64,000 bases of DNA from Candidatus Gottesmanbacteria bacterium RIFCSPLOWO2_01_FULL_43_11b (lineage in GTDB: Bacteria; Patescibacteriota; Microgenomatia; UBA10105; UBA927): the NCBI GenBank assembly GCA_001780985.1, contig MFJV01000001.1:158980-222979 (forward strand), given 5' to 3'. Under the pieces are notes generated by a model. The model made no database searches, had not been told where the DNA came from, and was given only the letters and a program-made list of their open reading frames with translations. The translations under genes and the position numbers were made by a program. Positions 27,703 to 30,470 of the stretch are shown in pieces. The first letter of the stretch is position 1. Every line of letters starts with the position of its first letter.

Positions 27703-27966
27703 AGAGGTGTTAGTGTAGCAGGATTTCTTTTCTTTGACAATCGAATGGTGACAGGAAGAAATTGAGAGTTGTCACTCAACCATCTTTTATACACTAAAAG
27801 ACGATTTGCTCGAGAGTGACTTTGTCCCGCTCTCAGCGGGACGGATAATCAATCTCATCTTGAATTCCTCGCTCCGATTAGATCGGAGTGTAAATTCTCA
27901 ATGACACTGATTTTATAAATAGAAAGGAGGTGATCCATCCCCAGCTTCGGCTAGGGATACCTTGTT

Positions 27967-28663
27967 CATGTTTATTCCCGGTTTTCACCGGGGCATGGAC
28001 TATATCTTCATCCGCAAAAATTGACGTTTTTCTGGATGAACCGAACCAATTATTTTTGCAAAATCGTTGTAAGACCTTGCCGAAATATAAAATCTCCAAT
28101 AATTCGGATCAACCGTTTTACTAGGATTATGAATTACTCCACAATGAATACTTAATTCTTCTAAATAGTGTTTTACTTGTAAAAGATCTTGCTTGTCCTT
28201 TTGACAAAAATACAAGTAATACCTCACCGAAGAATTTTTAGCAATACCACCTTCTGCATCGAAATAACCTCGGATATATTCGATTTTGTCGTTCTTAGAA
28301 CGTATTTCAATATCTCGTAAAATCTTTTTCGGAAATTCTACTATCCAAAGATTACGAGACTTTCCTTCTTTATATATCCAAGCTCCAACATGTAATTTAC
28401 GAATTCCTATTTTTAGAAACTGCGCAAATTCTCTACTGTTAGTTGCTATTCGATAGGTAGATTGCCGACTGGTACCATCGTGAGCCATTCCCAATAAATA
28501 TGGTTTCGTCATATGCGGCGCCAACGTGTAGTCTCTACGGAGTCCCCGATATAATCAGGGTTCCCTCGGTATTCCCATATGTTGATTATAAACCAAGCAT
28601 GAAGGGTTCACCGATACAGTTGGATTTTCCCATACCCTTACGGATATGGGTCGCAACAAACTT
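27967..28663 (-). mobile_element. group-I-like intron in 16S rRNA between AAGTCGT and AACAAGG (about E. coli position 1498/1499)
   Basis: The conserved 16S sequence CCTTGTT|ACGACTT is split by 697 nt. The 5' exon ends in U and the intron ends in G (omega-G). It contains a LAGLIDADG ORF. Confidence 0.6.
28000..28524 (-). CDS. intron-encoded LAGLIDADG homing endonuclease
   Basis: 174 aa. LAGLIDADG-type motif YIRGYFDAEGGIA. Basic, inside the 16S intron. Confidence 0.65.
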   Translation of the reverse strand: MAPHMTKPYLLGMAHDGTSRQSTYRIATNSREFAQFLKIGIRKLHVGAWIYKEGKSRNLWIVEFPKKILRDIEIRSKNDKIEYIRGYFDAEGGIAKNSSVRYYLYFCQKDKQDLLQVKHYLEELSIHCGVIHNPSKTVDPNYWRFYISARSYNDFAKIIGSVHPEKRQFLRMKI

Positions 28664-30470
28664 ACGACTTAGTCCCCATCGCTGAGTTCGGCTTCGACCG
28701 TAAAAACGGCCTTCAGCCGCCCCCAACTTTGTTGGCTTGACGGGCGGTGTGTACAAGACCCGAGAACGTATTCACCGCAGCCTTCTGATCTGCGATTACT
28801 ACCGATTCCGACTTCATGAGGGCGGGTTGCAGCCCTCAATCTGAACTGAGGCGAAATTTCAGGGATTTGCTTGCCATTACTAGTTTGCATCCCATTGTTT
28901 TTCGCCATTGTAGGGTGTGTGTTACCCAGGGTATAAGCGCCGTGCTGACTTGACGTCGTCCGTTCCTTCCTCCCCGATACATATCGGGGCAGTCTCCGAT
29001 GACACTTATAACATCGGATACGGGTTGCGCTCGTTCTCCTACTTAAAGGAACACCCCACGGCACGAGCTGACGACAGCCATGCAGCAGCTGTGATACCAT
29101 CCTTGCGGATAGCCTACTATTTCTAGCGGGTTAAAACGGTACCATGTCAAACCCTGGTAAGGTTTTTCGCTTTGTCTCGAATTGAACCACACGCTCCACC
29201 GGTTGTGCGGGTCCCCGTCAATTCCTTTGAGTTTTAATCTTGCGATCGTACTCCCCAGGCGGTCTGCTTAACGCGTTAGCTTACGTCAGTCCCCCTTGCG
29301 GCGGACCAACTAGCAGACATGCGTTTAGGGCTAGGACTACGCAGGTCTCTAATCTGCTTCGCTCCCCTAGCTTTCGTGTCTCAGCGTTAGGTGTGGGCCA
29401 GAAAGGTGCCTTCGCCTTTGGTGTTCCTCATGATATCAACGCATTTCACTGCTTCACCATGAGTTCCCCTTTCCTCTCCCATCCTCAAAGACTCCCCATC
29501 TCGAACCCAACGCCGAGGTTAAGCCTCGGGCTTTCAGGTTCGATGCGGAAATCCGCCTACACGACACTTTACGCCCAGTGAATCCGGATAACGCTTGCAC
29601 CCTACGTATTACCGCGACTGCTGGCCCGCCACAATTTTTTGTAGCGAACTTTGGACTATATCATCACCCCACAGATTGGGGGTCTCGCGTGTAGTCTCTG
29701 AGGACTCTCCCCGCCATCCTTTCATTATAAATGAAGGCGGAGGTTGCCTGCTGATTGTCTTGATACATGCTTGCTTTCGCAAAACTATTTCGCGGACATA
29801 TCAAGGTGTTCCAGCATATAGCGAGATTTTCTTTTACCGTATTACTACAGTAACTACGCACCATCCGATTACATCGAATCACGTAGTTTGTAGGTGCTTA
29901 TTCGCCAAACCTCGATGATCTGGCAAAAGAGGTTTACATACCGAAATACTTCATCCCTCACGCGGCGTCGCTCGGTCAGGCTTTCGCCCATTGCCGAATA
30001 TTCCTAGTTGCTGCCATCCGTAGATGTATAGCCCGTGTCTCAGTGCTATTGTGGGGGGTCGCGCTCTCACGCCCCCTACCCGTCATCGCCTTGGTAGGCC
30101 ATTACCCCACCAACAAGCTGATAGGAGCAAGGCCGCTCTTCCTCCGTGCCGTTACGCACTTTGATCTTACGACCTCATGGAATATTACCCCGTCTTTCGA
30201 CGAGCTATGTTCCAGAAAAAGGTACGTTCCTTGCTTATACTCACCCGTCCGCCACTAATCTTTCGACCGTTCAACTTGCATGCCTAAGGCACGCCGCCAG
30301 CGTTCATCCTGAGCCAGGATCAAACTCTCAAAAAAAATTAACGTCCCGGATATCATGATTCGCTTACGCTCATCACCATCCGGGTCCGGCTGATGTCGCA
30401 ACGCGACATAATAGCCGGATTCCTATCACCATTCGTTTGTCAAATGTTAATGTGCGACTCTCAATGAGCG

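Follow-up and report, generated by a model that had tools for sequence, protein, structure and literature searches.

Two probable group I introns, one encoding a LAGLIDADG endonuclease, in the 16S rRNA gene of a Candidatus Gottesmanbacteria genome

A 64-kb stretch of DNA from Candidatus Gottesmanbacteria (Microgenomates, candidate phyla radiation, CPR), hereafter called the window, contains a 16S ribosomal RNA (rRNA) gene that is interrupted twice, and the locus raises the question of what the two inserts are and whether a continuous 16S rRNA could be made across them. We conclude with high confidence that the single 16S gene of this host is interrupted by two group I introns, one of which harbors a homing endonuclease gene. 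Next to the gene, in place of a 23S rRNA gene, lie tRNA genes, one of them nested inside the halves of another.

A 16S rRNA gene in three exons

The gene lies on the minus strand, like every feature of the window given with coordinates below unless stated otherwise, and occupies 27923..30337 (Rfam RF00177, 1222.5 bits), its ends being set at about 30337 and 27923 by the conserved sequences GAGAGTTTGATCCTGGCTCAG and GGATCACCTCCTTT. It comprises three exons and two introns: exon 1 (29881..30337, E. coli ~1-516) and exon 2 (28664..29625, ~517-1498) were placed by the Rfam match together with the junctions read from the sequence, and exon 3 (27923..27966, ~1499-1542), which carries the anti-Shine-Dalgarno CCUCC, by the sequence. 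Without both inserts the gene measures 1463 nt, and its exons are complete, with the 530 loop, the decoding site and the anti-Shine-Dalgarno all intact. This is a short 16S, near the ~1.47 kb typical of CPR bacteria (PMC9297842), and the loci nearest to that of the window belong to Microgenomates genomes, which places the host within the CPR. The Rfam small-subunit (SSU) match misplaces the 3' end of the gene at 28616, within the second intron, so that automatic rRNA annotation shortens the gene.

In metagenome assemblies, rRNA genes are frequent points of breakage or mis-joining, and one contig (L001; loci are referred to by L numbers) ends within this very 16S gene, as would be expected if chimeric reads or mis-joined repeats had produced the interruptions. 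The arrangement is, however, recurrent. The endonuclease described below is, from its ATG at 28512, 100% identical to A3A79_01140, a hypothetical protein of Candidatus Gottesmanbacteria bacterium RIFCSPLOWO2_01_FULL_43... on a 1.02-Mb contig, and the identical protein with identical neighbours is also found in independent ENA and JGI assemblies; four independent metagenome assemblies carry the sequence. The endonuclease, the exon junctions and the downstream tRNA arrangement are the same in the ENA, JGI and NCBI assemblies, and dozens of other genomes have the same architecture. Because of this recurrence, we consider the chance of an assembly artefact to be practically negligible.

The smaller insert, 29880..29626, splits the gene at ...AACUACGU|GCCAGCAGUCGCGGUAAUAC... 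between U516 and G517, in the 530 loop. An earlier account of this DNA, made from its letters without database searches (the sequence-only reading), had described it as an expansion of ~175 nt in V3; it is instead a group I intron of 255 nt without an open reading frame (ORF), which we call intron 1. Rfam RF00028 (Intron_gpI) covers 29631-29890 end to end (model positions 1-253) at 57.2 bits, above the gathering score of 50. The end of the 5' exon, CUACGU, pairs with GCGUAG of the intron to form P1, with a U.G pair at the splice site; UGGU, next to the P1 guide, pairs with GCCA of the 3' exon to form P10; and the terminal base of the intron is the G (omega-G) of group I introns. Among the 39 related loci that cover this part of the 16S gene, two have an insert at the same place, of 904 nt (L017) and 885 nt (L033), and the stretches that intron 1 shares with them are 85-94% identical.

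The larger insert, intron 2, splits the conserved 3' sequence AAGUCGU|AACAAGGUA: the last exon T lies at 28664, the insert occupies 28663..27967, and the exon resumes from 27966. By E. coli numbering counted back from the 3' end, the break falls between U1498 and A1499, at the 3' end of helix 44 and adjoining the decoding site. The sequence-only reading had given here an insert of 697 nt, at about E. coli 1498/1499, with boundaries consistent with a group I intron (an exonic U before the 5' splice site and a terminal omega-G); the junctions bear out the length exactly and also the position, and both bases can be read directly, the intron ending in ...CAUG. An internal guide sequence, 5'-UUGUU GCGAC-3', is found at 28650..28659. 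Its GCGAC pairs with GUCGU of the 5' exon (P1), placing U1498.G at the splice site, and its UUGUU pairs with AACAA of the 3' exon (P10), one contiguous guide thus serving both helices. All core helices pair in the window's copy: P2 (CCAUAUCC/GGGUAUGG, with a GUAA loop), P3 (CCAAC/GUUGG), P4 (UCGGU/ACCGA), P7 (GACUA/UAGUC), P8 (CCGCA/UGCGG, enclosing the ORF) and P9 (CCCGGU/ACCGGG, with a GAAA loop).

For a comparative analysis of this intron we collected homologous loci through relatives of the endonuclease, taking one genome per species; from 139 relatives 80 loci were kept and 72 were tested for the junction. An intron of 675-958 nt was present in 68 of the 72, at the identical ...AAGTCGT|...|AACAAGGTA junction. 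We then aligned 38 introns with their ORFs cut out, using the structure of the window's copy. Standard pairs filled 88.8% of the cells of this alignment against 72.3% in shuffles, and the covariation score was 0.423 against 0.133 in shuffles, none of 500 shuffles reaching the observed value; with the pairing partners slid by 1-3 columns the score was at most 0.131. Compensatory double changes were seen in all eight pairs of P2, four of five in P3, four of five in P4, all inner pairs of P8 and five of six in P9. P1 was paired in every cell, with U.G at the splice site in 38/38 introns, P7 was invariant, and P10 was paired in 84.7% of the cells. The core from P3 to P9, with its P3/P7 pseudoknot, is thus conserved with covariation. 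In addition, the homologous intron in L033 clears the Rfam threshold as a whole (62.9 bits), and locus L059 is the published archaeal SSU/1498 intron IB4.19. Because of these three lines of evidence, the group I identity of intron 2, suggested by the sequence-only reading, is secure, and we place it in the SSU/1498 family as a putative IB4-type intron with an ORF in P8.

The same evidence bears on another explanation, that the inserts are intervening sequences excised by RNase III without religation, leaving a fragmented and functional 16S rRNA, as for some bacterial 23S genes. Inserts that stay unspliced are known from bacterial rRNA, and some of the short CPR inserts are suspected to be of this kind (PMC11270868). 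Both inserts here, however, show the full group I architecture, including a guide sequence that lines up the two exons, covariation has maintained the catalytic core, and both sit at universally conserved central sites (the 530 loop and 1498) and not at the tips of variable helices. Moreover, CPR rRNA inserts were judged to be introns by gene-versus-transcript comparison, being absent from the transcripts (Brown et al. 2015, as related in PMC9297842). We therefore regard excision without religation as very unlikely, and group I introns as the explanation of both inserts.

The endonuclease in P8 and its proposed role

Intron 2 encodes a LAGLIDADG homing endonuclease, identified by its Pfam domain, its homologues, a structural model and a fold match. 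The sequence-only reading had listed a LAGLIDADG ORF of 174 aa. Such an ORF exists, starting from a TTG (28000-28524) and matching Pfam LAGLIDADG_3 (PF14528, E 9.5e-15), but the start lies at the ATG at 28512, the one chosen by gene callers and by all homologues, and gives 170 aa plus the stop at 28000..28512. An exact look-up found the 170-aa ATG form in the databases and returned no match for the 174-aa TTG form. In many homologues the protein continues upstream into an N-terminal extension (MxIPREP...GLRRDYT), which is translated P5-P4'-P6-P7; a TGA in P6 closes this extension in the window's copy, so that translation must begin at the ATG at 28512. At the other end, the C-terminal codons L-R-M-K-I-stop (UUG CGG AUG AAG AUA UAG) overlap P8-3', J8/7 and P7-3' (28016-27998), and these last codons are nearly invariant because they also belong to the ribozyme core.

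There are at least 763 homologues of the endonuclease. The acidic residues of motif 1 (LLGMAHDGT, D12) and motif 2 (YFDAEGG, E87) are invariant across 25 homologues, and every family-invariant column is retained in the window's protein. An AlphaFold model built with 25 homologues (pLDDT 89.7, pTM 0.87) consists of two alpha-beta-beta-alpha-beta-beta-alpha halves, and the best Foldseek matches are full-length I-DmoI (E 7e-9, TM 0.65) and I-Tsp061I, both monomeric two-domain enzymes of archaeal rRNA introns. The protein thus combines the family domain and its catalytic acidic residues with a modelled saddle fold of two halves. From the model, the N-terminal 70 residues are predicted to form a second, degenerate LAGLIDADG half, which would make the protein a compact two-domain monomer like I-DmoI; the degeneracy of the first motif explains why Pfam detects a single domain. 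If the model is correct, the two halves of the monomer are unlike, which suits the non-palindromic 16S target.

We propose that each intron would fold into a group I core whose internal guide sequence holds both exons, pairing with the end of the upstream one in P1, where U.G marks the cleavage site, and with the start of the downstream one in P10. The intron would then be released by two transesterifications, the first begun by a bound guanosine and the second ended at the terminal G, and the rRNA would be rejoined as the 1463-nt 16S. The LAGLIDADG enzyme made from the P8 loop would cut intron-less 16S genes at the 1498 site (...GGACTAAGTCGTAACAAGGTATCCC...), and repair would copy the intron in. 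The site-specific distribution of the unit (68 loci, the same junction) points to such cleavage, and I-ShaI, a related CPR enzyme, cuts its own insertion site (PMC11270868). Homing of this kind would account for the recurrence of one intron and endonuclease unit at one site in CPR bacteria as well as in DPANN and other archaea.

Several points weigh against this account. The search that the sequence-only reading had suggested, RF00028 on 27967-28663, matched intron 2 at 38.3 bits (E 4e-8), under the 50-bit threshold, and aligned its 3' part only, because the 513-nt ORF splits the core; this result is ambiguous alone, and the comparative analysis of homologous introns replaced it and settled the matter. 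P5 and P6 are poorly supported in the 38-intron alignment (43-73% of cells paired), probably owing to length variation of these peripheral hairpins. The similarity of the endonuclease to solved endonucleases is marginal in sequence: a search of the PDB with the single sequence gave no match and a profile search gave only I-DmoI at E 0.09, for which reason the fold comparison was used. Finally, we infer from sequence both the splicing of the two introns in this organism and the activity of the endonuclease.

Homing elements go through cycles of decay, and intron 2 might be in such a state, with a dead ribozyme or endonuclease and a 16S that is a pseudogene or depends on host factors for splicing. 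The sub-threshold Rfam score and the TGA that closes the upstream extension could be taken in this sense. On the other side, the ORF is intact from an ATG that many homologues use and keeps all family-invariant residues, every core helix pairs in this copy, and the exons yield a complete 16S. Furthermore, a single 16S copy is normal in CPR bacteria (PMC11270868), so a copy that could not be spliced would be lethal. Decay of intron 2 is accordingly improbable in our view, and we keep to two introns that would both be spliced, the second with a putatively active endonuclease.

Archaeal 16S genes, from DPANN and other groups, contain relatives of the endonuclease with 41-55% identity, for the most part at the 1498 junction (L057-L063 and L080, contigs of Micrarchaeota, Aenigmatarchaeota and Thermoplasmata), and such relatives also occur in a few non-CPR bacterial bins (L073, L077, L081 and L084; Omnitrophota, Actinomycetes, Elusimicrobia and Armatimonadota). 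This distribution suggests cross-domain spread of the homing element, and the sharing of the intron-endonuclease unit by CPR bacteria, DPANN and other archaea makes a clear case of it. Several contigs labelled 'uncultured Gammaproteobacteria' have Microgenomates-like 16S loci and may be mislabelled. In two related CPR genomes, L014 (3122-3201) and L029 (3112-3192), group II intron domains (Rfam RF01998) are found inside the 16S gene alongside the 1498 group I intron, consistent with the published group II site at position 1400.

Genes beside the 16S gene and a nested tRNA-Ile

The 16S gene stands alone. An Rfam scan found no 23S or 5S rRNA in the whole window, which extends about 28 kb from the gene in one direction and 34 kb in the opposite one, and protein genes follow the 16S gene, as the sequence-only reading had noted. 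No 23S therefore lies within the distance beyond which published criteria count rRNA genes as unlinked (>1.5-2 kb); the term 'unlinked' holds for the 64-kb window only, which counts against carrying it further. The order after the 16S gene is a 103-aa ORF, a hairpin with a promoter-like site, tRNA-Cys(GCA), tRNA-Ile(GAU) and a MutS-like gene. The 103-aa ORF, already listed by the sequence-only reading, lies at 27391..27702, has no Pfam match, and is called as a gene in independent assemblies. On its 3' side are a terminator-like hairpin (27371-27385) and a promoter-like site (27350-27378), so that the interval between the 16S gene and the tRNAs contains a terminator-like hairpin and separate promoter-like sites.

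The two tRNA genes had been read as tRNA-Ala and tRNA-Ile, in an order reversed relative to the usual 16S-Ile-Ala-23S. The tRNA-Ile(GAU) is indeed there, but the gene probably meant as tRNA-Ala (27267..27339) has the anticodon GCA, a canonical T arm on the minus strand and U73, and is thus a tRNA-Cys, as called by ARAGORN and Rfam (tRNA, 66.3 bits); with no tRNA-Ala present, the notion of a reversed order does not apply. The arrangement 16S-Ile-Ala-23S is kept in some relatives (L013, L014, L017, L044, L047, L079), and other relatives, including another Gottesmanbacteria genome (L006), have no 23S within 4 kb of the 16S gene. Because some relatives keep the linked arrangement, the linkage state of the rRNA genes is lineage-specific. 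Many Microgenomates have a tRNA-Cys(GCA)/tRNA-Ile(GAU) pair instead of Ile/Ala after the 16S gene, its two members lying in some cases on opposite strands; the loci with the pair are the window, L001, L006, L024-L028, L031, L032, L045, L052, L055 and L207.

The tRNA-Ile region holds an arrangement that the sequence-only reading missed: an intact tRNA-Ile nested inside a second, split tRNA-Ile. The inner tRNA-Ile(GAU), complete by ARAGORN and Rfam, lies at 27127..27199, between the arms (27204-27217 and 27109-27122) of a perfect 14-bp inverted repeat. Directly upstream of it on the RNA strand is the 5' half of an outer tRNA-Ile(GAU)-type gene (27220..27252; GGGTGATTGGCTCAGTGGTAGAGCGCGTTCCTG, 27252-27220), which contains the acceptor strand GGGUGAU, the D arm, the anticodon stem CGUUC and C32 U33 G34. 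Downstream is the corresponding 3' half (27054..27092; ATAAGAACGAGGTCCCAGGTTCGATCCCTGGATCACCCA, 27092-27054), with A35 U36 A37 A38, GAACG, the variable loop, the T arm, the acceptor strand AUCACCC and A73. Pairing between the halves is perfect, and ARAGORN accepts the joined sequence as a tRNA-Ile(GAU) with a flawless cloverleaf. Intact tRNA-Ile genes with matching sequences are found in other CPR bacteria. The 127-nt insert between G34 and A35 consists of the inner tRNA-Ile within its 14-bp inverted repeat, plus a 7-bp hairpin, and the whole nested region folds at -76.9 kcal/mol (z = -4.6). ARAGORN in intron mode did not call the outer tRNA-Ile, no Rfam family, ribozyme or other, matched the inserts of the window or of six further loci, and inspection of the 127-nt insert by eye revealed no bulge-helix-bulge motif and no sign of a group I intron either, omega-G being absent and the length only 127 nt.

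Nested tRNA-Ile genes are shared by several Microgenomates lineages, occurring also in Blackburnbacteria (L010, 5790-6041), Woesebacteria (L009, 1150-1530) and metagenome contigs. A clean second example is L108 (2160-2390), with outer acceptor strands GGGCGCG/CGCGCCC. Two stacked 5' halves precede the intact gene in L106 and L098, making three levels; L192 has one 5' half, an intact gene and three stacked 3' halves; and in L123, L174 and L202 the 5' half is present and the 3' half absent. The inverted repeats around the inner tRNA are perfect and 12-14 bp long, with a different sequence in each lineage. Most of the 119 metagenome matches to the pattern of the 5' half were set aside as chance matches in GC-rich coding DNA, and a CUGAUGA-hairpin motif seen in several loci was rejected as a hammerhead, since it resembles half a core without the GAAA element. 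A scan of viral contigs for the nested arrangement found none, and a search for syntenic 'empty-site' relatives through the downstream MutS-like gene also found none, the best homologues being at most 56% identical and not syntenic.

Two explanations can be considered for the nesting. In the first, which on balance we favor, small cassettes, each with a tRNA-Ile of its own, enter the anticodon loop of the resident tRNA-Ile gene time after time at the DNA level and leave nested relic halves behind. In the second, the outer tRNA-Ile is still expressed as a tRNA after removal of the insert from the RNA. Some loci do not have equal numbers of 5' and 3' halves; the hybrid 5' half of L010 no longer pairs with the 3' half of that locus, and is explicable as a deletion between two 5' halves such as those of L098; the outer halves have extra inserts of 25-50 nt in their D and T loops; and one allele is the outer gene in one genome and the inner gene in another. 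All of these argue that the outer halves are DNA-level relics and not exons. On the other hand, the window and L108 have an intact outer tRNA, and the stem between the halves is similar to the complementary leaders seen in split tRNAs of archaea, which leaves some room for removal at the RNA level, unlikely though we hold it to be. Invasion by cassettes is likely the better of the two explanations, the remainder being undecided.

If the outer tRNA-Ile were expressed, it would represent a new, non-group-I kind of tRNA intron in this group of bacteria, the excision of which releases another tRNA; with the 127-nt insert removed from the RNA, the mature tRNA of 73-76 nt would start with GGGUGAUUGGCUCAG and read ...CCUGAUAAGAACG.... 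Traces of mobile DNA are found at related loci. In L180 (718-1746), a tyrosine-integrase gene (Pfam E 2e-10) comes right after a 5' half that is truncated. The loci from the two closest relatives of the window's organism (L207 and L006) have no outer halves, and in them an 11-nt duplicate of the 5' end of the tRNA-Ile is followed by a GC-rich structured element, which in L006 (~5600-5920) lies upstream of the tRNA and has a gene for a GIY-YIG nuclease (E 1.6e-15) and in L207 (1977-2067) is an ORF-less version. The tRNA-Ile(GAU) gene beside the CPR 16S gene thus looks like a hotspot for mobile DNA. The literature that we searched holds no description of nested or intron-containing tRNAs in CPR bacteria, and these nested genes may be a lead deserving a study of its own.

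A further repeated sequence accompanies the relic halves. The motif AGC-GNA-GCT-TGGCCA(A/T), or its variant hairpin-TTGACATAT, is inserted in their D and T loops and also stands upstream of them (L009, L010, L106, L123, L138, L174, L192, L202), and upstream of the halves TTGGCCA-N17-TAAACT resembles a promoter; the motif may represent a small repeated element or else serve as a promoter module. On the other side of the 16S gene, between it and an upstream glycosyl-hydrolase-like gene, the interval 30479-30578 holds a strong promoter-like site (TTGACG-18-TATAAT, 11/12 matches) and, ~55 nt on, a terminator-like hairpin; the pair could make a short transcript, or the hairpin could be just the terminator of the glycosyl-hydrolase-like gene. 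Elsewhere in the window, on the plus strand, a glmS ribozyme (17604-17761; Rfam 43.7 bits, threshold 37) lies directly 5' of a 600-aa ORF (17749-19551), which is presumably glmS.

Comparison with known systems

Earlier publications already describe group I introns at the SSU/1498 site, the occurrence of LAGLIDADG_3 endonucleases in the 16S genes of CPR bacteria and unlinked rRNA genes in these bacteria, and the finding is therefore the correct recognition of a known phenomenon. What is added here is the prediction that the LAGLIDADG_3 proteins of this site are two-domain monomers, and the observation that the two introns split universal primer sites: intron 1 splits that of 515F (E. coli 515-533) after its second base, at 29880/29881, and intron 2 that of 1492R (1492-1513) after 1498, at 28663/28664. 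With both sites split, amplicon surveys would miss or mis-size this organism.

In a survey of 380 CPR 16S genes, 48% had inserts, and 35% of the inserts matched the group I model (Tsurumaki et al. 2024, PMC11270868). Most ORFs in these inserts were LAGLIDADG, inserts with an ORF and inserts without one coexisted at the same sites, and several inserts per gene occurred (PMC11270868). LAGLIDADG_3 was confined to 16S genes and, within them, to two sites, LAGLIDADG_2 being present as well at one of the two, 16IS10; the LAGLIDADG_2 proteins were placed 'at position 1498', which we take to be the site 16IS10 (PMC11270868). Intron 2 is of the same kind as these CPR inserts, namely a group I intron at position 1498 with an ORF of the LAGLIDADG_2 or LAGLIDADG_3 type. 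Where the survey, by Pfam, describes LAGLIDADG_3 as one domain with an undefined N-terminal region, our model predicts a second, degenerate half.

The SSU/1498 site was new for group I introns when it was described from archaea (Nawrocki, Jones & Eddy 2018, PMC6125680). The archaeal SSU/1498 IB4 introns share with intron 2 the site, the core and the type of LAGLIDADG ORF, and the published IB4.19 (MNVH01000001.1, Micrarchaeota; locus L059) aligns with it helix by helix. The hosts of these introns are archaea, whereas that of intron 2 is a CPR bacterium, and P4 is UCGGU/ACCGA in intron 2 but UGCUG/CAGCA in the archaeal copies, the changes being compensated. As to the layout of the genes, unlinked rRNA genes are found in most CPR genomes and lineages (Brewer et al., bioRxiv 10.1101/705046; Lui et al. 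2021, PMC8172020), 27 of 34 circularised CPR genomes in one study having them (PMC8172020 / bioRxiv 10.1101/705046). The window, with no 23S near its 16S gene and with tRNAs and protein genes following, resembles these and shows no notable difference.

The endonuclease is best compared with I-DmoI of the Desulfurococcus mobilis 23S rRNA (PDB 2vs8, 1b24). Both are single chains of ~170-190 aa, the window's protein being so modelled, with two pseudo-symmetric halves and one acidic residue per motif, and they align over the whole length (~178-194 columns), although identity is ~22% and the target is 16S for the window's enzyme and 23S for I-DmoI. The host introns are unlike as well: that of I-DmoI is of the archaeal bulge-helix-bulge type, whereas intron 2 is a group I intron. 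As for intron 1, U516/G517 is presumably the S516 site of the group I introns in eukaryotic nuclear SSU rDNA (Naegleria, many fungi, algae). The likeness noted is one of insertion site, the same E. coli coordinate; unlike the eukaryotic S516 introns, intron 1 has a bacterial host, is small (255 nt) and is ORF-less.

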